DNA of 64,000 nt, from the NCBI RefSeq assembly GCF_048403405.1, contig NZ_CP183129.1. One strand, 5' to 3'. Each line of letters begins with the position of its first letter. The first letter of the stretch is position 1. Positions 4,982-28,668 of this stretch are shown piece after piece. Source of the stretch: Escherichia coli (GTDB lineage Bacteria > Pseudomonadota > Gammaproteobacteria > Enterobacterales > Enterobacteriaceae). Below the pieces are notes generated by a model. That model did not search any database, was not told the DNA's origin, and saw nothing but the letters and a program-made list of their open reading frames with translations. A program made the translations under genes and the position numbers.

Positions 4982-5265
4982 TGGTCTCCTTCGCGAAATA
5001 TACGATTATTGACTGGATAGCATTCATTCAGGTTTTGCTCATCTGGTTTTATATGGCTTACAGGAGTGGACAGTGGATTGTCAGTGTAGCCTGTAGCAAT
5101 GGATGGCGTTGGTGGAACCGAAAGAATAAAAAAGCGCTGGCCTTGGCTTCGTTTTACGAAGCATTCAATCTTAACAGTCTTCAGCCTGGTTCTGTCGTTG
5201 TAGTCACCACTCAAAGCGGCATGACGATACAAATTCACAAGCCAAAGGAGGAAGGTCGTGGCTAA
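4978..5265 (+). CDS. Small hydrophobic hypothetical protein
   Basis: 95-aa ORF translationally coupled to its neighbours (ATGA overlap); Trp/aromatic-rich. Confidence 0.35.
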   Translation: MMVSFAKYTIIDWIAFIQVLLIWFYMAYRSGQWIVSVACSNGWRWWNRKNKKALALASFYEAFNLNSLQPGSVVVVTTQSGMTIQIHKPKEEGRG

Positions 5266-5539
5266 CCTGCAACTTGCCGTTAAAGGTGAATACTTCGATG
5301 CCATGATTCGCGGGGAGAAAACGGAAGAGTATCGCCTGTGTAATGACTACTGGAATAAGCGAATTATGTTCCGCGAGTATGACCGCCTGATTATCACAAA
5401 GGGATATCAGAAGCGCGACGATTCCAGCCGCAGAATTGACGTCCCGTATGACGGATATGAAATCAAGACAATCACACATCCGCACTTCGGCGATAAACCG
5501 GTAAAGGTGTTCGCTATAAAGGTGAATATTGATGGCTAA
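5258..5539 (+). CDS. Hypothetical protein (ASCH/PUA-like?)
   Basis: 93-aa ORF with RBS AAGGAGG upstream; family assignment is a weak recollection. Confidence 0.35.
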   Translation: MANLQLAVKGEYFDAMIRGEKTEEYRLCNDYWNKRIMFREYDRLIITKGYQKRDDSSRRIDVPYDGYEIKTITHPHFGDKPVKVFAIKVNIDG

Positions 5540-5988: not shown

Positions 5989-6585
5989 ATGATGCCTGCT
6001 GAACCTAAAACCTATAAACGCAAATCAACGCAATTTAAGCCGCTCACAGCAATGCAGGAGGCTTATTGCCAGTCATACATCAAAACGCCTGAAAACCAGA
6101 CTCAGGCAGCGATTAACGCAGGATTCTCCCCAAATACAGCGGCAGTTAAAGCCAGTGTCATGATGCGCGATGAACGCATTCAAAAACGGATTGCCGAGTT
6201 GATGGAGGAGCGCAACAAACGAATGCGCGTCAGTGCTGATTACGTTCTCATGCGCCTGGTGGAGATCGACCAGATGGACGTGATCGATATCCTCAACGAC
6301 GATGGGAGCCTTAAACCAATCCGCGAGTGGCCGAAAATCTGGCGCACTACGCTTAGTGGCTTTGATCTGTCATCGACCATCATGAACATGAACGAGGATT
6401 CGATAGAGACAATCCTCAAAAAAATTAAATGGCCTGACAAGGTGAAGAACCTCGAACTGATTGGTAAGCACGTCGACGTCAACGCATTCAAAGAACGCCT
6501 GGATGTTAATGTGAATGTGACAATTGCTGATCGCATAGCGGCAGCCAGGAAGCGACTCAAAGAACGTCAGGATGGTAATCAGTGA
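5989..6585 (+). CDS. Terminase small subunit
   Basis: Placed directly upstream of and overlapping the large terminase; helical DNA-binding-type N-terminus; ATG pair at 5989/5992 after GGTGG (upstream in-frame Thr-rich extension from 5911 judged non-coding). Confidence 0.55.
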   Translation: MMPAEPKTYKRKSTQFKPLTAMQEAYCQSYIKTPENQTQAAINAGFSPNTAAVKASVMMRDERIQKRIAELMEERNKRMRVSADYVLMRLVEIDQMDVIDILNDDGSLKPIREWPKIWRTTLSGFDLSSTIMNMNEDSIETILKKIKWPDKVKNLELIGKHVDVNAFKERLDVNVNVTIADRIAAARKRLKERQDGNQ

Positions 6586-8702: not shown

Positions 8703-8779
8703 TGGCGTGGCATGCAGGATTCGAACCTGCGACCAACCGCTTAGAAGGCGGTTGCTCTGTCCAACTGAGCTAATGCCAC
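8703..8779 (-). tRNA. tRNA-Arg (anticodon UCU), phage-encoded
   Basis: 77-nt cloverleaf folded by hand: acceptor GTGGCAT/ATGCCAC, D-arm GCTC-AGTTGGACA-GAGC, anticodon arm ACCGC-CTTCTAA-GCGGT, T-arm GCAGG-TTCGAAT-CCTGC, discriminator G, encoded CCA. Confidence 0.85.
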
Positions 8780-18422: not shown

Positions 18423-21169
18423 TGCCTGTTGTTCCTACTACATCCGGACGTCAGGTGCAAAGTCGTGGTGTGCAAACCGGTGGTTTTCAGATCTTCGATG
18501 TTCCTCAAGCAGATCAGGTGCTGGCGAATGTCGCAGATCAGTATGCGGTGGCATATGGTGAAGCCAGGCAGAAAGCGAATGTTGCTATGGCCCAGGAGGC
18601 GTTACTGCAATTTAACCAATTTGCAGATGACCAGATTAACAACCCTGAAAGTGGGCTGATTTCTAAACAGGGTAAAAACGCTCTTGGTCAGAGTGACGCT
18701 GTTATGAAAAATATGCAGGAAAGGGCTCAGGCATTATTAGGCTCAATTCCTGAAAGTGAGGAAAGGAATAAATTATCCTTTCAACTCCAGCAGTCTATGC
18801 AGTCTTATTACAATCAGGCACGTCGATATGAAGTTGGGCAGTTTCAGCAATTCCAAGATCAAACGTATTTGTCAGGAAATGCATTGGCTGTCACTCAGTC
18901 TGCGGGGCTATATAGCGATAACCAAGCATTTGTCGATTTAGCCAAGCAGCGATTTGAATCTATTGATCAATACGCTGATGCGCATGGGCTTCCTGATGAG
19001 TGGCGTGTTCAGCAGAAAACTCAGCTCAAGGAACAAATGGGGCAGCAAGCATGGATAGGAAATATCGCTCAAAAATACAACGAGTTTCTTCAGGTTAATG
19101 GAGAGCCAGGGGATCTTGATGGTGTGAGTCGTGCAATATCACATGGTAATTCATTGGATGCTCGTGGTTTACGTAATAATAACCCTGGTAATATTGAAGC
19201 GAGCAAATCTAACCCGTGGGAAGGTCAGATCGGTAGCGATGGACGTTTTGCAACGTTTGCTACCCCTGAGCATGGAATCCGCGCGTTGGGTAAAAATATG
19301 TTGTCTTACCAGCGTCAAGGCTATGACACCGTTAGCGAGATTGTTAATCGCTATGCTCCGGCTAGTGATGGTAATAATACTGATGCTTATATTAGGGCAT
19401 TGTGTGGTGAGCTTGGTGTTGGGGAGAATGATCAGCTTGATATCTCTAACCCAAAGACACTAGCTGCTTTATGTGCTGGGATTATTAAACACGAAAATGG
19501 CAGTATGCCTTATAGCACCGAACAGCTTGAAACTGGTATCTCGGCAGCCCTTGGTCTAACTAACCTTGATTCACCTAAGCGTTATACAGGCAATGCGGCA
19601 TTTGATGCTATGAGCCCTCAAATGCAAATACAGGCATTGAGGCAGGCTAATGAGCTGAGAAATCAGTACCGCCAGCAGTATGCGGACCAGCTTAGCACCG
19701 TAGTTAAAGATGCATATTCAGCCCTTGATGAAGGATTGAAACCTGAGAAGTTACCTTCTGAGGACGATTTTATCCGGGCCAATGGTCCGCGCATTGGCGC
19801 TATGAAGTGGAAGGATATGCAGGCGCAGATACAATATGGAGGTGTCATTGGTGCCGCTAAAGACCTCACTCCAGAAGGACGACAAGACATTCTTGAACGT
19901 TTACGTCCACAGGATCCAAACGCTCCTGGATTTGCAGCTAACCAGCAACGCTGGGAGAAAATGCAGGCCAAATTTAAAGAGATGGATAGGGAGTGGGAGA
20001 TTCAGCAGGGAAGAAACAGGTTCGTGTCTTCAATGCAAAATAACTTCCCGCTGGACCCGAACGACAAAAACAATCAGGCAGCGGTAGACCGTTATTTCGC
20101 GCAGGATATCGCGCCTTCGTTTTCCATATCTGATCCGCAGAGCATCAATACACTGGTCACCGTCACAACTAAAAGCGGCATGATACCAACTCAGGTTAAA
20201 ACAATGCTTAACAGTGGAGCAACATCAAGAGATCCTGCGCTGGTTGTCCCGATGGCAAAATTCTACGGTCAGTTATTCGATAATAATCCGGCGGCAGCGG
20301 CAACACTTGATAAAAGTACGATGGCATTTTACGGCAAGGTTTACGATTATTCCCGCGCTGGCGTGCCGGAGGATAAGGCTGTTGATATGGCTTACAGCCA
20401 GGTGTTCCAACAGGATGACCGAATGAAACAGATGCTTTCCACTGCCATGCGAGACAAAAAATATGTCGCGGCGAGGGCAACTGCTGCACAAAATAACGCC
20501 AGCAGTCTGACTTCCTTTGGTTCGTGGTCTCCGGATATTACCGATCCAGGAAAATCAAATGCGGCCTATCAGCGAGATTACCAGACAATTTACGATGCTA
20601 ACTTTGTACAGACAGGTGGCGATGCAGAACAGGCTGAGAAAATGACCAATGCCATGATCAGAACCACCTGGGGAGTTTCTACGGTTAATGGCAAAGCAGA
20701 GGTTATGAAGTATGCACCTGAGGCATTGTACGGAGTAAATAATGGTGCTGGTAACTGGATACAGGGGCAGTGGGAGCAGGAAAAACGCGAGCTTAAATCA
20801 AAATCCTTTGGCGGTCCTCGCAGTGATACGGACTTAATACTTGTTTCTGATGGCCTTACGGCAAGGGATAGGAGTTATGCTGTTATGGTTTTACAGCCTG
20901 ACGCAAACGGAGCGATAGAACCGAGAAATTATATTGGAGAAAATGGTCTCCCTGTTCGTTTCAAGCCGGATCAGCTGACATCTCCAATGTACAGGCAAAC
21001 CATTAAGTTCCAGCAACAGCGTGTTGATGAGGCTAGAGTGCGGAGAGAAGGCAATCCGCTGCCGCAGTTCAGCAATAAAGATGGATATACTCCTCCAGAT
21101 CTGACCAAACCATTCGGTTATGGTTCAGCCAATTACCTTCCGAGCAATATATACGCAGGGGGCAAATAA
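18422..21169 (+). CDS. Internal virion / ejection protein (T7 gp15-like core protein)
   Basis: 915 aa, in the gp15 position; contains a conserved-looking block NNPGNIEASKSNPWEGQ...HGIRALGKNMLSY. Confidence 0.5.
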   Translation: MPVVPTTSGRQVQSRGVQTGGFQIFDVPQADQVLANVADQYAVAYGEARQKANVAMAQEALLQFNQFADDQINNPESGLISKQGKNALGQSDAVMKNMQERAQALLGSIPESEERNKLSFQLQQSMQSYYNQARRYEVGQFQQFQDQTYLSGNALAVTQSAGLYSDNQAFVDLAKQRFESIDQYADAHGLPDEWRVQQKTQLKEQMGQQAWIGNIAQKYNEFLQVNGEPGDLDGVSRAISHGNSLDARGLRNNNPGNIEASKSNPWEGQIGSDGRFATFATPEHGIRALGKNMLSYQRQGYDTVSEIVNRYAPASDGNNTDAYIRALCGELGVGENDQLDISNPKTLAALCAGIIKHENGSMPYSTEQLETGISAALGLTNLDSPKRYTGNAAFDAMSPQMQIQALRQANELRNQYRQQYADQLSTVVKDAYSALDEGLKPEKLPSEDDFIRANGPRIGAMKWKDMQAQIQYGGVIGAAKDLTPEGRQDILERLRPQDPNAPGFAANQQRWEKMQAKFKEMDREWEIQQGRNRFVSSMQNNFPLDPNDKNNQAAVDRYFAQDIAPSFSISDPQSINTLVTVTTKSGMIPTQVKTMLNSGATSRDPALVVPMAKFYGQLFDNNPAAAATLDKSTMAFYGKVYDYSRAGVPEDKAVDMAYSQVFQQDDRMKQMLSTAMRDKKYVAARATAAQNNASSLTSFGSWSPDITDPGKSNAAYQRDYQTIYDANFVQTGGDAEQAEKMTNAMIRTTWGVSTVNGKAEVMKYAPEALYGVNNGAGNWIQGQWEQEKRELKSKSFGGPRSDTDLILVSDGLTARDRSYAVMVLQPDANGAIEPRNYIGENGLPVRFKPDQLTSPMYRQTIKFQQQRVDEARVRREGNPLPQFSNKDGYTPPDLTKPFGYGSANYLPSNIYAGGK

Positions 21170-24100
21170 TGCCGATATATGAACAGGATCCTAAAGAGTT
21201 GCTTGGCGAGGATATTCAGCAAATAGCAGCACCTGATGACAGTAATTTCTATATGGAAACACCTTCTTTGCTTTCTGCTGTGAACCCATTTACCAGTGAT
21301 CAACGCGTTCAAAGGTCTAGACAAGCAGCATTTCGTATAGATAACACGCTGGGTAGCTTTATTGCCAGTGCTCCTTTCAGTCAGTTTGACAGGGTTGAAG
21401 GATATAACCCATTTGATAACGATGCAGCAGATATTAAAGGCTATGAAGATTTTGCAGATTCGTTTATCAACTCCGGTTCGCATGAAGAAACAATGGCAAT
21501 TAAACATCGAATCGATCAGCAGAGAGCTGACATGGAATACAATTCAGGCTTGGGATTTGCTGGTACAGTCTCTTCTGTAGCAATGAGATTAGCAGATCCA
21601 TTCAATGCGATTTCTATGTTTATTCCGTTCGGCGCTGTCGTTCGTGGCGGTCGTATTGCAGAAACAGCCGGACGTTTTGCTTTAGCCAATGCTGCTGGCA
21701 GTGTTGCTTCAGAGGCCGCATTGCAGGCCACTCAGGAAGCTCGCTCACCGATGGAGAGCGTATCGAACGTTGTTGTTGATGCTCTCGTTGGTGGGATCCT
21801 TGGTGCTGGTGCACAGCTACTTGCTGGACCTAGCGCGCGCGAGGCAGTGGTTAACTCAGTAGGTAATCATTTGCGAGGTATGGATTCTCCTCAAAGCATT
21901 GGTGCAGCTCAGGTTTTCAATACCACACTCGATCAGGAACAGCTTGCTGGACTTGGACTTGCTAACAAAACGTTGAGTGTCACTCCTGCTGGCCGCTTGG
22001 CGCAATCACCATCTCTTGTTTCCCGTCAGATTAACCAGCAGCTTGCCGAAAATAACTATTTCTTCGCCAAAAATGATGAGGGGTTGGCTACGTTTACGGC
22101 AGTCGAGACTAAGATTAAGCAATACGACGCCATGCTTTATAAGCAGATGGAAGCTACTCGTGATGCTTACCAGCAGTACAGCAAATCTGTCAGCGCCCGC
22201 GGCGTGAAGAGGATGAACTTTATTGATTTCAATGAAGCTGTTGGCATGGCTATGCGCCGTGGTGATCAGAGTGATATTCCTGAGGTTTCACAAGCAGCCG
22301 CCAGAATCCGCCCCATTTTTGAGACCACAAAAGCCCGTATGCAGGAATTGGGGATCCTTCCTGAGGATATCGATGTCGTGACGACGAAGAGTTATCTTCC
22401 CCGCATTTATAAGTTCGATAAGATACTTTCCGACCGCACTGAATTCAGAGGGCGAATTGCCAACTGGATACAAGGGATTAGTGCCAAAGGTGCTGACAAA
22501 GCAGGTCAGCGAATTGAAAAGATAAATTCATTGCTAAAAACTGCAGAGGAATCAGCACCGCGCGCTGATGCTCTCGCTAGTGAAATCGCTGAAGCGGAGA
22601 AATGGTCTGGTAAAAAAATTCTACTCATGGAAGAACTGGATAAACGAAATAAGCTTATATCTCAGGAGACTGACACACAGGCGCGTCTTACAAGAATAGA
22701 AAAAGAGTTGGCCGAGACTTCATCAGAAAAACTTCAGGCAAGAATGATGAAAGAAAGCTCTGACCTTAAAACACGCCTTGATGATATAGCGCAGGCAAAG
22801 AGTGAGCTTCCTGTCTATCAGCGCCATATGGAGTTGCTGGATAATCCACGGAAATATCGTTCTGAGCTTCGCCGACTGCAAAAACGGGCAAATTCAACCA
22901 CAAGGCTGAATGCAAGCCGCGAGCGAGCACTGAAGCAGATGGAGCCTCTATCCCGAGAGGAAGCAGAGGACGCTGCTGACGAGATCGTGAATAAAATAAT
23001 AGGCGCACCTTCCGGGCTTGTACCAGCCGATATTATCCCAGAGAGACTCGTTGGTCGGGCTGGTTTCACTAAAAGCCGAACGCTGCTTATTCCTGATGAG
23101 CGTATAGAAGATTTTCTTGAATCAGATGTTAACTACATCATGGAAAGTTATCTCCGGCAGGTGGCACCAGAAATTGAGCTGACTGCGCAGTTTGGCCGTA
23201 AAGATATGGGGGAGCAAATCCGTCAGGTTAGTGAGGAATATACCCGGCTAATAAAAGAGGCTAAAACACCTAAACGACGTGCAGCTCTTGAGAAGCAACG
23301 GGAGGCTGATATTAGGGATATTACGGCTATGCGTGACCGACTGCTTGGTACTTACGGCGCACCTCAAGATCCACGCAGTTTCTTTGTTCGTGCCGGGCGA
23401 GTTGCTAGGAATATTAACTTCCTCCGTTTGCTTGGTGGAATGACCGTCTCCGCTGCAACTGATCTGATGCGACCGATGATGCAGCATGGCCTGAGAAAAT
23501 CTCTCGGACCAATGGTAAGCATGCTTAAAAATATGGACTCAGTGAAAATTGCAACCAGGGATTTGCGAGAAATGGCAGTTGGGCTTGATTATGTCCTGTC
23601 TACGCGCACAAAGGCTATAGCGGATCTTACTGACCCCTATAGCCGGAGAAGCGCCGCTGAGCGAGGTCTGAACTGGATGACGCAGAAATTCGGTAACTGG
23701 ACGCTGATGAATCAGTGGAACAGCGCACTTAAATCATGGTCTGGGATGATAGTGCAGTCGAGGATACTTGACGCGGCTCGCCAAGTTTCTGCTGGTGGCA
23801 CGCTCTCCAAAAGTGAAATGCGGAAGATGGCACAGGTCGGCATCAATGAAGATGTTCTGCGCCGAATCGGGGAGCAATTCGGGAAGCACGGAGAGGATAT
23901 GGACGGGCTGTTAACCGGGCATAGTCATCTGTGGGATGACCGTTTCGCTAGAGAGATTTTCCAGTCTGCAGTGCTGAAAGATGTAGACTCAGTGATTGTA
24001 ACGCCTGGCGTAGGTGATACACCGCTGTTTTTTAGTAAAGAAGGCTGGAAGATGATCACGCAGTTCAAAACGTTTATCTTCGCACAGCATAACAGGGTGC

Positions 24101-24558
24101 TAGTATCTGGTATCCAGCAGGGCGATGCTGCATTCTATCTTGGTGCGCTTGGCACGATTGCGCTTGGCTCAATGGTCTATATGATGAAACAGAAGTTAAG
24201 CGGTCGCGATATCGACTACAGCTGGAATAACCTTGTGAAAGAGGGGATCGACCGGGGCGGAATGCTTGGCTGGCTCTCTGAGCCGCTGAATACCGTTGAG
24301 AACATAAGCGGCGGTAGGTTTGGTCTTGGCGCGATGTTTGGTGCGCCTCCGGTATCAAGGTTTCAGAGTCGTAATGCTATTGGTGCTTTACTTGGTCCTA
24401 CCTTTGATCTTGGCGGTGATGCCGCGACGGTTGCAAATGGTGTACTTAACGGAGAATTTGACAGCCAGCAAACCCACGCTGTCCGTAAAATGCTACCTTT
24501 TCAGAATCTGTGGGCGATATCACCATTACTAAATAAAGTTGAAGAGCAGATGAAATAG
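21169..24558 (+). CDS. Internal virion / ejection protein (T7 gp16-like)
   Basis: 1129 aa; Gly/hydrophobic-rich C-terminal region resembling the gp16 C-terminus as recalled. Confidence 0.55.
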   Translation: MPIYEQDPKELLGEDIQQIAAPDDSNFYMETPSLLSAVNPFTSDQRVQRSRQAAFRIDNTLGSFIASAPFSQFDRVEGYNPFDNDAADIKGYEDFADSFINSGSHEETMAIKHRIDQQRADMEYNSGLGFAGTVSSVAMRLADPFNAISMFIPFGAVVRGGRIAETAGRFALANAAGSVASEAALQATQEARSPMESVSNVVVDALVGGILGAGAQLLAGPSAREAVVNSVGNHLRGMDSPQSIGAAQVFNTTLDQEQLAGLGLANKTLSVTPAGRLAQSPSLVSRQINQQLAENNYFFAKNDEGLATFTAVETKIKQYDAMLYKQMEATRDAYQQYSKSVSARGVKRMNFIDFNEAVGMAMRRGDQSDIPEVSQAAARIRPIFETTKARMQELGILPEDIDVVTTKSYLPRIYKFDKILSDRTEFRGRIANWIQGISAKGADKAGQRIEKINSLLKTAEESAPRADALASEIAEAEKWSGKKILLMEELDKRNKLISQETDTQARLTRIEKELAETSSEKLQARMMKESSDLKTRLDDIAQAKSELPVYQRHMELLDNPRKYRSELRRLQKRANSTTRLNASRERALKQMEPLSREEAEDAADEIVNKIIGAPSGLVPADIIPERLVGRAGFTKSRTLLIPDERIEDFLESDVNYIMESYLRQVAPEIELTAQFGRKDMGEQIRQVSEEYTRLIKEAKTPKRRAALEKQREADIRDITAMRDRLLGTYGAPQDPRSFFVRAGRVARNINFLRLLGGMTVSAATDLMRPMMQHGLRKSLGPMVSMLKNMDSVKIATRDLREMAVGLDYVLSTRTKAIADLTDPYSRRSAAERGLNWMTQKFGNWTLMNQWNSALKSWSGMIVQSRILDAARQVSAGGTLSKSEMRKMAQVGINEDVLRRIGEQFGKHGEDMDGLLTGHSHLWDDRFAREIFQSAVLKDVDSVIVTPGVGDTPLFFSKEGWKMITQFKTFIFAQHNRVLVSGIQQGDAAFYLGALGTIALGSMVYMMKQKLSGRDIDYSWNNLVKEGIDRGGMLGWLSEPLNTVENISGGRFGLGAMFGAPPVSRFQSRNAIGALLGPTFDLGGDAATVANGVLNGEFDSQQTHAVRKMLPFQNLWAISPLLNKVEEQMK

Positions 24559-24559
24559 G

Positions 24560-25411
24560 ATGAAAAAAATAAATTTGTTTTTTGGCATAGTGCTTTCAAT
24601 AGTCTCTGTAAATCCTACAGCTGCCAGTTCATTGCAATGCAATAAGGATAACTTTGATGCATGCAAAACGTGCGAACAATTATCAAAGGCTATCGACTTA
24701 AAAGAACCTAATCGTGGCGATTACTATAGAGGGGCTTTATGGAATGGGCTTTACGCCTCTTATGTAATTAATTGCCCTGTGGTTGCAGAGAAGTTACTGA
24801 GCCATGGTGCTATACCATCATATGGCGGATATATGGGGTCTATGGGGGCGGTTCTGACAGGAAAATGGCCTCATAACAATGAATCAATAAATCTTTCATG
24901 GGCAGATTTGCTTATAAAACATGGATTTGATGTTAATAGGCATACGGGGAATTATAAATCAGCTACTGAAGTATGGGCTATAGATAAAAAACAGATTGAA
25001 TATAAGTCAGTTTTTGACAAGTTAATTCAATCCAGCGAAGTAAAACCACTCGATCCTTCAAGAAATTTAGAATGGTGTGCGTCTGAAGGGTATCGCTCAG
25101 TTGTCGTTTATTCCCTTAACTCATGTATAGAAAATGCTATAAAACGTTTGGATGACGGTGTTTCTTCAGCGTCTGATATTTCATCAGCAGCCGTAAATTC
25201 CTGTACTAGCGATGTAGAAAATTTCAATAAGCATTTGGCATGCAAAGCAGCTGTTAAAGAAAACTCTGATAAAGAGAGAAGCAACGTTTACCAGTTATTA
25301 ACCAGTGATAGTCAAATGAATAAAAATGTTATTGATATGCTGAAGGAAAGAAATATTGAAACGGTTCTTGAATTTAGAGCTGAAAATCGATCAGCGAAAA
25401 CTGCACAGTGA
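24560..25411 (+). CDS. Secreted hypothetical protein with ankyrin-like repeats (moron), AT-rich
   Basis: Signal peptide MKKINLFFGIVLSIVSVNPTAAS; two ankyrin-like segments (...AEKLLSHGAIPS..., ...ADLLIKHGFDVN...); start 1 nt after the gp16-like stop; terminator follows. Confidence 0.55.
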   Translation: MKKINLFFGIVLSIVSVNPTAASSLQCNKDNFDACKTCEQLSKAIDLKEPNRGDYYRGALWNGLYASYVINCPVVAEKLLSHGAIPSYGGYMGSMGAVLTGKWPHNNESINLSWADLLIKHGFDVNRHTGNYKSATEVWAIDKKQIEYKSVFDKLIQSSEVKPLDPSRNLEWCASEGYRSVVVYSLNSCIENAIKRLDDGVSSASDISSAAVNSCTSDVENFNKHLACKAAVKENSDKERSNVYQLLTSDSQMNKNVIDMLKERNIETVLEFRAENRSAKTAQ

Positions 25412-25417
25412 TCAAAC

Positions 25418-25442
25418 AGGCCGCTTTCGCGGCCTTGTTTTT
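25418..25442. terminator. Bidirectional terminator hairpin
   Basis: AGGCCGC-TTTC-GCGGCCT followed by TGTTTTT; hairpin core GGCCGCTTTCGCGGCC is identical to the one at 28670. Confidence 0.55.
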
Positions 25443-25602
25443 AACGAATGCCACCGCCGCCAGGGCGGGAATCCGCAGAACGCCCACCGCAGCGGGAGCC
25501 GTCAGCGGCAGTATCGCTGTCGTGCTGACAACGACCGGCAAAGGCCTGAGTTGAAGCTACCAGAGACAACAAAACGAACAGTGCAGCAAATGCTTTTTTC
25601 AT
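25441..25602 (-). CDS. Small secreted Gly/Cys-containing peptide (53 aa) with its own promoter (moron)
   Basis: Internal start MKKAFAALFVLLSLVASTQAFA gives a clean signal peptide; promoter-like hexamers upstream and terminator downstream. Confidence 0.45.
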   Translation of the reverse strand: MKKAFAALFVLLSLVASTQAFAGRCQHDSDTAADGSRCGGRSADSRPGGGGIR

Positions 25603-25615
25603 TGTGAAATTTCCA

Positions 25616-25643
25616 TCTATAAGCCACCTCAATGTGGCGTCAA
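25616..25643 (-). promoter_or_regulatory. Candidate sigma70 promoter for the small secreted peptide (-35 TTGACG, -10 TATAGA, 16-nt spacer)
   Basis: Minus-strand hexamers at 25638-25643 and 25616-25621. Confidence 0.35.
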
Positions 25644-25672
25644 TGAGTGTAGCACTGACTTTTGTTTCGTCC

Positions 25673-25695
25673 ACAAAAAAGCCCGCAGCGCGGGC
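25673..25695 (-). terminator. Minus-strand rho-independent terminator
   Basis: GCCCGC-AGC-GCGGGC followed on the minus strand by TTTTTT, immediately after the stop at 25696. Confidence 0.5.
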
Positions 25696-25929
25696 TTACT
25701 TTTCTTCAGGTTTGTTGTCTTCAGATTTCTTCTTGATGCTTGGTTTTTGTCTAAGACCGAAAATACCAGCCACTGCAACAACTGTACCGATCACTGTGCC
25801 AGCTAGAACTTCATGACCTGTTAAACCTAATAATGTTGCACAAGCTACTGTAAAAATAGTTGCACTCAGGCCAAACCACTGCCCACGTTTATCTCTATTA
25901 ATAGCCCCGTCAAGTGCCTTTTCCTCCAT
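25696..25929 (-). CDS. Small two-TM membrane protein (possibly the C-terminal part of a frameshifted larger gene)
   Basis: 77 aa with two hydrophobic segments and a Lys-rich tail; the same frame stays open upstream to ~26073. Confidence 0.45.
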   Translation of the reverse strand: MEEKALDGAINRDKRGQWFGLSATIFTVACATLLGLTGHEVLAGTVIGTVVAVAGIFGLRQKPSIKKKSEDNKPEEK

Positions 25930-26617: not shown

Positions 26618-27310
26618 TCAGAAGAACCCTGCTTTGTCGTTGATGTACTCCGCGTGCGTCTGGATATCACGCAGGCATTTGCTCACACCGACGATGTAGC
26701 AGAACATGGTGGTCAACTCCGCCGCCGCGCCCGATACGTCGTGCCCGTCTTCCTGTAACTGGTTTAGCAGATTCATCAGCAGTGAGTTCTCCGTCAGGCC
26801 GAGAACACCAGACGGCGAATGAATCAGGCTGCGGTAGCCGGGCTTCAGTGGGGCGCTGTAGGTTTTGTTCTCTACCTTCATTGCCTGCATCACTGCTGAT
26901 GCTGTGGCGTTGGCTACCTGGTCGGCAACCATCTTTATGCGTTCTTCCTGCGGGAGCGAGTTTTTAATGTAACTTCCGGTGCGGCGGATCTGAGGAAGAA
27001 CCTCACCTGTAACCCATTCAAGAAATCTGAATGCTCTCGTTCCCTCAGTCATTGCCTCTTTGCAACGCAGAATAAGGATGTAGAGACCTGATTCTGAAAC
27101 GATGGATAGTTCTTGTATTCCACCAGGGGTCTGTATTGAATACAGCCCCTTTTTGTTCCAGCCTTTTTTATCAAGTTTTCTCGCTTGTGTAACATCAATA
27201 TTCAAAGCATTGCACACATCTTTGGTGACAAACCAAGGTTCTCCGTCAATCATGAACATACGGATCTGGCAGGATGACTCAAAGGAAAAGATGGAAGGTT
27301 TGGTATTCAT
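26618..27310 (-). CDS. Antirepressor (Bro-N domain plus KilA-C/ANT C-terminal domain)
   Basis: Start MNTKPSIF after AAAGGTGA; Bro-N-like N-terminus (FMIDGEPWFVTKDVCNALNI...) and ANT-like C-terminus, as recalled. Confidence 0.7.
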   Translation of the reverse strand: MNTKPSIFSFESSCQIRMFMIDGEPWFVTKDVCNALNIDVTQARKLDKKGWNKKGLYSIQTPGGIQELSIVSESGLYILILRCKEAMTEGTRAFRFLEWVTGEVLPQIRRTGSYIKNSLPQEERIKMVADQVANATASAVMQAMKVENKTYSAPLKPGYRSLIHSPSGVLGLTENSLLMNLLNQLQEDGHDVSGAAAELTTMFCYIVGVSKCLRDIQTHAEYINDKAGFF

Positions 27311-27669
27311 AGCGATCACCTTTGTAGTTAGGTTAATCACCACCGCTGAGACCAATCAGATGGTGGTGAACTGTGCAGAGTTGGTCTTACCGGCTACAAA
27401 GGAACCCGGCGCACCTTTCGGTGCCCCCACACAGCCCACCATAGAATAGGTGCGCTTTACACATAAAAAAACCGCTTATGCGGCATATGTGCCTCTGTAG
27501 TAATCCGGGAGACCAATCCCGGCACTGGATTTTGCCAGTGCCCGATTACTATGGCACAAGAGGAGTGCAATGTAAATTTACCGAAAAGGTAATAATAAAT
27601 GCATAACTCACGTTATTTCAACCCTATATGGTTTGATTTATCCCATTTCAGAAAATACCTGCCTATTTT

Positions 27670-27717: not shown

Positions 27718-28173
27718 TTGGGGGTGCCCGTGAACACGAAGAGAGCTACAGTAATGCAGCATTTGAGGAAATCAGAAAAAAATAAAGACCATGAAATATT
27801 GAGTAAGGCCATTGTTCGGGCTTCCAATAATACTGTTATACCTCATGCTGAAGAGTCTGGACAGAAATTTCTTATTCGGTATTTCACTGAAAATAGTGCA
27901 GTTGAGGAGATTTTAAAACATCAGGGAGGGGAATTTAAATGTGGAAAACTGGCAGATTATGTTCGTCGTGAAACGTCTGAACAAGAAGTATATTATGCTG
28001 ATATTAATCATAAGTCAGGTGTGAAAATTGTAATAGGCTATTACACAACTCCCAAAAATGTTATGCATGAGGTCCCAAAGATGTCCGTCGAGAAATCTCA
28101 TGCAATCTCGCGCAGGATGTTTGCACGCACTGCCGAAGATATGGCTCAGGAGCTCTACGACGATGCTGAATAA
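27718..28173 (+). CDS. Hypothetical protein with acidic C-terminus; candidate antitoxin/immunity partner of the downstream YafO-like gene (ATG alternative at ~27754)
   Basis: 151-aa ORF, AT-rich; its stop overlaps the start of the next gene (ATGCTGAATAA). Confidence 0.45.
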   Translation: MGVPVNTKRATVMQHLRKSEKNKDHEILSKAIVRASNNTVIPHAEESGQKFLIRYFTENSAVEEILKHQGGEFKCGKLADYVRRETSEQEVYYADINHKSGVKIVIGYYTTPKNVMHEVPKMSVEKSHAISRRMFARTAEDMAQELYDDAE

Positions 28174-28477
28174 ATTCCAGGGGTTGGTTCACCCTGGAAT
28201 TTTTGGGAAGGACCCTGAGCTAATACCTATCAAAAACGCGTTCATAGATCACTGGCGCTACGGTCATCATAAGGATTTCGGAAAGGACACTCTGTTTCGG
28301 GATCCACCGAAAGAAATGCTGGAATATCACATACGCCACGTTCACGTAAACATCGGAAACTATACTGACAAGTTTGGTGAGAGCGGTACGGACAATGCTG
28401 GAAAAACTGGGCGTCTGGGAAGAAAGACAAGACCACTAACAAGCATAAAAAGATCCCAACCAGTGACGTGTATGTGA
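28163..28477 (+). CDS. YafO-like toxin, N-terminal part (gene appears frame-split)
   Basis: FGKDTLFRDPPKEMLEYHIRHVHV resembles the recalled YafO motif FGRDALYDD...ERVAHIHL. Confidence 0.4.
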   Translation: MLNKFQGLVHPGIFGKDPELIPIKNAFIDHWRYGHHKDFGKDTLFRDPPKEMLEYHIRHVHVNIGNYTDKFGESGTDNAGKTGRLGRKTRPLTSIKRSQPVTCM

Positions 28478-28668
28478 TTTATCTGGTCACATCTGAACGC
28501 CATGCCTTCCTTCTGGATTATTGGGATGAACCAGCACATAAGACAGTAGAAATTGACGAGCAGAAGCAAAAATTAGTTGTCGAGTGTGACAGAATTTTGC
28601 GGCTGAAAAAGTTAGAATCCATGCCGCGCGATGCTAGTTTGTGGGACCCAGAATTTTACGACTGTTAA
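28468..28668 (+). CDS. YafO-like toxin, C-terminal part in the -1 frame
   Basis: YLVTSERHAFLLDYWDEPAHK resembles recalled YafO HLVYCQGAFDEQAWLLIAILKPEPHK; overlaps the previous ORF by 10 nt. Confidence 0.35.
   Translation: MYVIYLVTSERHAFLLDYWDEPAHKTVEIDEQKQKLVVECDRILRLKKLESMPRDASLWDPEFYDC

Follow-up and report, generated by a model that had tools for sequence, protein, structure and literature searches.

What does a prophage gain from a gene that follows directly on its last virion gene, differs from its neighbours in base composition and carries an apparent export signal? The question is raised by an open reading frame (ORF) within a 64,000-nucleotide stretch of Escherichia coli DNA (contig NZ_CP183129.1 of assembly GCF_048403405.1; henceforth the window), in a prophage of the epsilon15-like type integrated beside yfgI. 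An initial annotation, made from the letters of the window and the translations of its ORFs, had described the product as a secreted ankyrin-like protein co-transcribed with the virion genes, possibly a periplasmic exclusion factor or a host-interaction effector. We find that this gene (henceforth the PHROG 6118 gene) is very likely a dispensable, AT-rich cargo gene that occupies a bounded slot in epsilon15-like prophages of Enterobacterales, that it is most simply read as the last gene of the late transcript, and that its product is very probably exported by Sec and combines a divergent ankyrin domain with a lineage-specific helical bundle. Databases already contain the gene, its product listed as hypothetical under a PHROG of its own; what we add is its fold, its compartment, the slot that the gene fills and the wider family to which one of its domains belongs.

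As judged from its conservation, the ORF is a real gene. Its product matches the profile phrog_6118 (function unknown) from end to end (residues 1-283 against profile positions 1-283, E 1.1e-200), and the identical protein (100%) occurs in the isolated phage EC.W1-9 (PP445227) and on many E. coli chromosomes, for example as WP_000723561.1 in strain ST648. The pairwise ratio of nonsynonymous to synonymous substitution rates (dN/dS) against orthologues is about 0.15, which, together with full-length homologues in five genera, argues against a chance ORF. Calculated by domain, the ratio is about 0.05-0.11 for the N-terminal and about 0.18-0.38 for the C-terminal domain.

Several features of the immediate setting are as first described. 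Exactly 1 nucleotide separates the stop codon of the upstream gp16-like gene (TAG, 24556-24558) from the start codon at 24560, so that the one ORF ends at 24558 and the next begins two positions on. The gene is AT-rich, with a guanine plus cytosine (GC) content of 0.370 and a third-position GC content (GC3) of 0.289, compared with 0.480 and 0.436 for the gp16-like gene and a GC content of 0.499 for the whole window. A strong terminator follows: in a terminator scan, its hairpin (25418-25435, then TGTTTTT) starts seven bases past the stop codon and has a fold energy of -16.1 kcal/mol (z score -5.0), which none of 200 shuffled sequences reached. The end originally given for the gene, 25442, takes in this terminator; the ORF itself ends at 25411. 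The label gp16-like is likewise reasonable for the upstream gene, since PHROGs places its product with 'internal virion protein with endolysin domain' (phrog_342, E 3.8e-232), and RefSeq lists it as a 'DUF919 family protein'.

We then considered how widely, and in which company, the gene occurs. Of the 5426 complete E. coli genomes, 105 carry a full-length chromosomal copy, with a nucleotide identity of 95.9-100%, and full-length homologues of 39-89% identity are found in prophages of Klebsiella, Serratia, Morganella and Providencia. A gene with its own PHROG and homologues in four other genera is not very rare, which qualifies the initial suggestion that a protein of this sort is unusual in enterobacterial prophages. 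The next gene upstream of the homologue is the gp16-like gene on 31 of 31 IMG/VR contigs and likewise in the prophages of Morganella and Serratia, and across this set the distance from its end to the homologue ranges from 4 to about 180 nucleotides; the spacing is 11 nucleotides in Serratia and 31 in Morganella. The PHROG 6118, gp16-like and gp15-like proteins of the window are 41, 55 and 44% identical to their Morganella counterparts and 61, 79 and 57% identical to those of Serratia, respectively. Divergence of the gene thus tracks that of its neighbours, which indicates that it has long been carried along with the late module, and on this ground we reject recent horizontal acquisition. Low GC has been kept across genera even though the sequence diverged in step with the genes around it: every orthologue examined has a GC content of 0.32-0.40 between flanks of 0.41-0.54, with no drift towards the flanks.

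The same position can also be empty or hold something else. Phage TL-2011b, whose gp16-like protein is 44% identical in its C-terminal region, has no gene there. In Klebsiella phage Kp4865-1, a Uetakevirus and the closest named relative of the prophage, the gp16-like protein is 93% identical over its C-terminal 399 residues and the slot holds an unrelated AT-rich gene (GC content 0.367, versus 0.518 for its neighbour), bounded by the gp16-like stop codon on one side and by the identical hairpin, AGGCCGCTTTCGCGGCCT, on the other. Moreover, in about 400 complete E. coli genomes without the PHROG 6118 gene, the match to the window begins only at 25416, with the hairpin and the small peptide gene behind it. 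Because both boundaries recur around other contents, what is exchanged is essentially no more than the ORF (24559-25415). Judging by these comparisons, the slot after the gp16-like gene is a cargo-exchange hot spot, one that is now located with precise boundaries in Uetakevirus-type prophages. Since the gene is either absent from close relatives or replaced in them by a different AT-rich one, we conclude that it is dispensable cargo and not part of the virion.

Is the cargo transcribed with the late genes or on its own account? A consensus scan, which can miss weak or internal promoters, failed to reveal a sigma-70-like site within 560 nucleotides upstream on the + strand, and the total count of promoter-like sites in the region of the gene is at background level. 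The same kind of scan found no promoter-like site upstream of the gene in two orthologous loci with longer spacers. Together with the tight coupling to the gp16-like gene and a real terminator, these results support the view, put forward at the outset, that the gene is co-transcribed with the late virion genes, which is the parsimonious reading of the sequence. Among the hallmarks of a moron, a phage cargo gene with expression of its own, the gene has a base composition unlike that of its neighbours and its own terminator, in a slot whose contents differ in Kp4865-1, whereas a promoter of its own was found neither in the window nor in the two orthologous loci.

The N-terminus of the protein begins with MKK, continues with a hydrophobic stretch of 14 residues (best 12-mer with a Kyte-Doolittle mean of 2.73) and NPTAAS-S, and then reaches the first conserved cysteine at residue 27. 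Small residues precede this cysteine, and by rule-based inspection the layout conforms to the sequence requirements of Sec and signal peptidase I, with cleavage most likely after A22, S23 or S24. In 36 of the 38 family members, the residues ahead of the conserved cysteine include a basic residue and after it a 12-mer with a Kyte-Doolittle mean of at least 1.6, our simple criterion for such a layout; the signal sequences themselves are poorly conserved. Residues 1-14 have an AlphaFold predicted local distance difference test (pLDDT) score below 50. A lipobox was not found in the protein, and family members have Q, K or E as the residue that precedes Cys27, which rules out a lipoprotein. From these features we strongly infer export by Sec. 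Of the original term 'secreted', the predicted export stands, but it can be read only as export to the periplasm. Eight cysteines, at positions 27, 35, 38, 72, 173, 189, 215 and 228, are invariant in all 14 full-length sequences, down to 39% identity. Four cysteines per domain are as expected for a protein that would be oxidized in the periplasm, and the product is probably folded with four disulfides.

Structure prediction gave a consistent picture of two domains. The AlphaFold2 model, built on an alignment of 38 sequences, has a mean pLDDT of 91.6 and a predicted template modelling (pTM) score of 0.77. In the model of the N-terminal domain (residues 27-160), a short cysteine-containing cap and a beta-hairpin precede three helix pairs, and the predicted stack of helix-turn-helix repeats with connecting hairpins can be superimposed on solved ankyrin domains. 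When aligned by hhalign with a designed four-repeat ankyrin consensus, the family profile matched in register over 74 columns (probability 79%, E 1.6e-5), and a phmmer search of 1.8 billion representatives matched eukaryotic multi-ankyrin proteins at E 1e-10 to 1e-4. A profile search of PDB sequences returned mostly ankyrins, at E values of at least 0.004, and the matches of the N-terminal domain were confined to sub-threshold ones with ankyrins or designed ankyrin repeat proteins (DARPins). In Pfam, the protein has no match even at E <= 10 and the 38-member alignment matches no family; a single one of the 38 members reaches Ank (PF00023), at E 0.035 only. By our reading of the sequence, WNGLY (residues 61-65) and WPH (103-105) would take the places of the TPLH motif, and LLSHGAIPS and LLIKHGFDVN would correspond to the usual LLxxGAxxN helix ends. 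As the structural resemblance was found and membership of the sequence family was not, we refer to a very divergent ankyrin-like domain.

The C-terminal domain (residues 165-283), modelled alone, has a pLDDT of 92.3. Neither Pfam, searched with the alignment, nor the sequences of the PDB gave a match to it, and a profile search returned only fragments of the PHROG 6118 family, with no relatives outside it. For the protein as a whole, no match was found in NCBIfam or among defence, exclusion or effector families, and a search of AFDB50 gave significant matches only to its own family and to standalone proteins of the N-terminal type. The ankyrin claim of the initial annotation is therefore borne out for the N-terminal half, as ankyrin-like, but fails the Pfam Ank thresholds, and the separate helical domain of 120 residues at the C-terminus had been overlooked. 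That annotation had named in advance two outcomes that would speak against it, a non-repeat fold of known phage structural function and the absence of a cleavable signal peptide; structure prediction returned no such fold, and by the rules above the signal peptide is present, kept across the family.

The N-terminal domain has a life outside these prophages. Searching representative sequences, we found dozens of standalone relatives of about 160 residues (E down to 1e-30), which consist of a signal peptide and the domain with the same cysteines; a few bear additional domains of other kinds at the C-terminus. Most of these relatives were found in metagenomes, marine or otherwise environmental, and in Alphaproteobacteria. 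Their genes keep varied company, some of them on short contigs, and no functional clue emerged from it. In four alphaproteobacterial loci (L011, L012, L013 and L014; gene at 5001-5495), the relative lies 5 nucleotides downstream of a small cytochrome c gene and is divergent from a gene for a 680-residue, NOX-like protein with EF-hand, ferric-reductase, FAD-binding and NAD-binding domains, a setting that suggests a conserved periplasmic redox neighbourhood. Another standalone relative adjoins transhydrogenase and peroxiredoxin genes. A marine relative (L047-L049, gene at 6001-6585) has EH_Signature and SNF2-helicase genes about 2.5 kb upstream, a pairing that we take to resemble ZorC and ZorD of Zorya, in which case the context might be a defence island. 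In a separate case, a metagenomic protein of 480 residues (P0057) has the ankyrin-like domain fused to a C-terminal segment of tetratricopeptide repeats (TPR), which by eye we presume to resemble the Tol-Pal-associated protein CpoB/YbgF. The distribution of the domain suggests a general periplasmic module, and our searches define a family of cysteine-capped, ankyrin-like periplasmic domains that has been unannotated and is without a Pfam model.

What, then, might the protein do? The ankyrin fold is of a kind that typically binds other proteins, and the product probably binds another protein in the periplasm. As to the partner, our preferred though still doubtful reading is that it neutralizes an envelope-acting component of incoming related phages. 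Exported to the periplasm, the protein would bind either the peptidoglycan-hydrolase segment of an incoming gp15-like protein or the trans-periplasmic conduit formed by gp14-, gp15- and gp16-like proteins, and the outcome would be superinfection exclusion or protection from lysis-from-without. We favour such entry blocking because the gene is genetically tied to the ejection-protein genes, because residues 243-395 of the gp15-like protein match phage 'tail injection transglycosylase' and endolysin families, and because the map position is like that of P22 sieA, with Spackle, SieA and Bd3460 as precedents. A bolder version, to which we give somewhat less credence still, is that the protein would stand for a new class of superinfection-exclusion or entry-blocking factors: a disulfide-stabilized, ankyrin-like binder of the periplasm, co-inherited with the ejection genes of epsilon15-like podoviruses, that would capture the incoming conduit or the peptidoglycan hydrolase belonging to it, and whose N-terminal domain would exemplify a family widespread in Proteobacteria.

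Several observations weigh against entry blocking. The protein has no sequence or fold similarity to Spackle, to SieA or to any PADLOC model, and PADLOC matched neither the gene nor its neighbours. Transcription that is likely confined to the late phase would not protect the lysogen, the state in which the exclusion genes of temperate phages usually act. The N-terminal domain is the more conserved half, unlike what an arms-race interface would suggest, although the C-terminal domain evolves faster. At least one E. coli genome carries two copies of the gene. Finally, since standalone relatives occur in unrelated chromosomal contexts, for example beside a cytochrome c gene, the N-terminal domain is general and not specific to exclusion.

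Comparison with characterized proteins places these points in context. The closest known kind is the ANKp proteins of 'ankyphages' (Jahn et al., bioRxiv 10.1101/608950). Like the PHROG 6118 gene, ANKp genes are phage-borne auxiliary genes whose products start with a signal peptide, lack a transmembrane segment and have a repeat fold of the ankyrin type, and both are read as acting outside the cytoplasm and not in the virion. ANKp proteins are, however, defined by Pfam Ank signatures, none of which our protein matches, and our protein has a cysteine-rich cap, eight conserved cysteines, an additional helical domain and a gene with a fixed place after the ejection genes. The nearest analogues in mechanism to the proposed entry blocking are Bd3460, Spackle and SieA. 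Bd3460 of Bdellovibrio is periplasmic and encoded beside its target, Bd3459. It is an ankyrin-fold self-protection protein that inhibits peptidoglycan endopeptidases (PMC4686830). Both proteins thus have an ankyrin fold and are thought to be periplasmic, and where Bd3460 inhibits secreted hydrolases, the gp15-like protein of the prophage has a hydrolase-like segment; there is, however, no detectable sequence relationship between the two, the fold match of our protein is to ankyrins in general, and its binding is only predicted. Spackle (gp61.3) of T4 acts in the periplasm, where it excludes superinfecting phages by inhibiting gp5, the tail lysozyme of the incoming virion (PMC7677548, PMC7650644). 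Like our protein, it is a small, exported, helical phage protein, and inhibition of the lysozyme type is the mechanism proposed here; unlike it, Spackle is the product of an early gene of a virulent phage and not of an apparently late transcript of a temperate one, and the two are unrelated in fold and sequence.

With SieA the likeness is positional only. In P22, sieA lies between ejection gene 16 on one side and immI with the tailspike gene on the other, a map position equivalent to that of the PHROG 6118 gene. SieA itself is an inner-membrane protein, expressed by the prophage, that blocks the ejection-protein conduit; it is not ankyrin-like and has no sequence similarity to our protein. Its targets are the ejection proteins gp16 and gp20, to which escape mutations map, and gene 9 is downstream of gene 16 (PMC10461980). 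One further comparison concerns the N-terminal domain, whose distant standalone relatives also lie beside a redox gene, that for a small cytochrome c. Pseudomonas aeruginosa AnkB, encoded in the katB-ankB operon, is an ankyrin-repeat protein with an export signal whose place of action, the envelope, is shared with redox enzymes. It differs in that its gene is chromosomal, with no known link to phages, and in that standard models of ankyrin do match it; the parallel does not imply a relationship to the PHROG 6118 protein.

The position and probable timing of the gene invite other explanations. If it is made with the virion genes only and exported shortly before lysis, it might serve the envelope late in the lytic cycle, either by binding a host or phage protein in the periplasm so as to tune the timing of lysis or the action of spanin or endolysin, or, once released, by masking receptors or debris and so sparing the progeny. 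Coupling of 1-31 nucleotides to the last virion gene, kept in E. coli, Serratia and Morganella, would fit such a role, as would the terminator immediately after the gene, the predicted export and the lack of an upstream promoter-like site. Yet the gene lies outside the lysis cassette, which follows the tailspike gene, close relatives lyse and form plaques without it, and known antiholins, spanins and receptor-masking lipoproteins do not resemble its product; we regard a late envelope role as fairly unlikely. That the gene is the last of the structural block and strictly linked to the gp16-like gene could also mean that it encodes a virion structural or assembly component, such as an extra ejection protein or a tail accessory. 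To this we assign next to no probability: assembly in the cytoplasm is not compatible with an export signal and eight cysteines of a kind suited to oxidation in the periplasm, no similarity to virion proteins was found, and phages with a near-identical gp16-like protein are viable without the gene or with an unrelated replacement. Export signal and dispensability in close relatives together effectively exclude a virion structural protein.

The predicted ankyrin-like binder might alternatively protect the lysogen from other bacteria, as an orphan immunity protein that shields it from a toxin acting in the periplasm, for instance a cell-wall effector of a type VI secretion system (T6SS) or a bacteriocin. 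Bd3460 (PMC4686830) and immunity proteins of the ankyrin type would be analogous, the slot of the gene is one of swappable AT-rich genes, and one standalone relative is found in a region with defence-like genes (EH_Signature and SNF2). No toxin gene, however, is adjacent in any locus examined, no immunity or defence family was matched, and strict linkage to one phage gene across genera is unusual for orphan immunity genes; such a role would also require that the lysogen express the gene, to which nothing points, and we consider it quite unlikely. Even less probable, in our estimate, is a factor of the ANKp type directed at eukaryotes, which would be released by lysis or in vesicles and would benefit the population of lysogens by dampening phagocytosis or inflammation. 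Phage ankyrins that bear a signal peptide do lower the uptake of E. coli by macrophages (bioRxiv 10.1101/608950), and all full-length homologues come from animal-associated Enterobacterales, many of them clinical isolates, but this host range may be mere sampling. Moreover, the Pfam Ank signatures that define ANKp-type proteins are not matched, a Sec signal in a Gram-negative cell leads to the periplasm only, and marine and free-living bacteria commonly have the related standalone domain, encoded beside housekeeping periplasmic genes. The remaining probability belongs to a role other than entry blocking and these four alternatives.

If entry blocking is the true role, the protein would represent a new structural solution, an ankyrin-type binder, to blocking the entry of podovirus DNA from the periplasm. 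The proposal can be tested directly, because a plaque-forming carrier, EC.W1-9, and natural relatives without the gene both exist. A literature search returned no papers for the RefSeq accession of the protein, and the sole paper on EC.W1-9 concerns phage-antibiotic combinations and not this gene. Should the function turn out to be mundane, the gene would be one more hypothetical cargo gene of prophages, now with a fold and a compartment assigned.

Table 1. Coordinates of the PHROG 6118 gene, its predicted parts and associated features (positions in the window unless another locus is named)
Feature	Position	Strand	Remarks
PHROG 6118 gene	24560..25411	+	ATG start, 283 aa, stop codon included; predicted exported two-domain protein
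Predicted Sec / signal peptidase I signal peptide, aa 1-24	24560..24631	+	rule-based layout
N-terminal domain, aa 27-160	24638..25039	+	cap with C27, C35, C38 and C72, then three predicted ankyrin-like helix pairs
C-terminal domain, aa 165-283	25052..25408	+	predicted helical bundle; invariant C173, C189, C215 and C228; found in this family only
Intrinsic terminator	25418..25443	+	hairpin AGGCCGC-TTTC-GCGGCCT plus T-run; right slot boundary, common to the downstream module
gp16-like internal virion (ejection) protein gene	21169..24558	+	1129 aa; its stop is the left slot boundary
Exported Cys/Gly-rich peptide gene, 53 aa	25441-25602	-	phrog_14503 'membrane associated protein'; module 25416-25700
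C4 antisense RNA	27359-27446	-	Rfam, 78.6 bits; upstream of BRO-N/Ant-like ORF 26618-27355 (-)
isrK RNA	27465-27541	-	Rfam, 74.7 bits; upstream of BRO-N/Ant-like ORF 26618-27355 (-)
Cargo gene of Kp4865-1 (phrog_3383)	L052, 5210-5824	+	204 aa, cytoplasmic-looking, no signal peptide

The prophage around the gene has the order terminase, portal, protease, capsid, Bbp16-type cement protein, tail, T7 gp14-family protein, gp15-like protein, gp16-like protein and PHROG 6118 gene. Beyond the slot follow the convergent gene for the 53-residue peptide, a DUF2335 gene, the BRO-N/Ant-like gene, a YafO-type toxin pair, the tailspike gene and the lysis genes (Table 1). The peptide gene is flanked by two hairpins, the terminator hairpin and another at 25679-25697, and in Kp4865-1 a homologue of the peptide sits after the alternative cargo gene. 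Between the PHROG 6118 gene and the tailspike gene, C4 RNA, isrK and the Ant-like gene make up an immI-type antirepressor control module. P22 also has a module of the immI type between its ejection-protein genes and the tailspike gene.

Two further observations concern other parts of the prophage. Relative to the ST648 and EC.W1-9 copies, the gene for the YafO-family toxin (28163-28668, + strand) has a single-base deletion at about 28391/28392. The deletion causes a frameshift that splits the gene into ORFs 28058-28477 and 28468-28668, and the toxin of the prophage in the window is probably inactivated. The prophage also contains, between its terminase and portal genes, a tRNA gene (8706-8779, - strand), for which the ST648 copy has the annotation tRNA-Arg.

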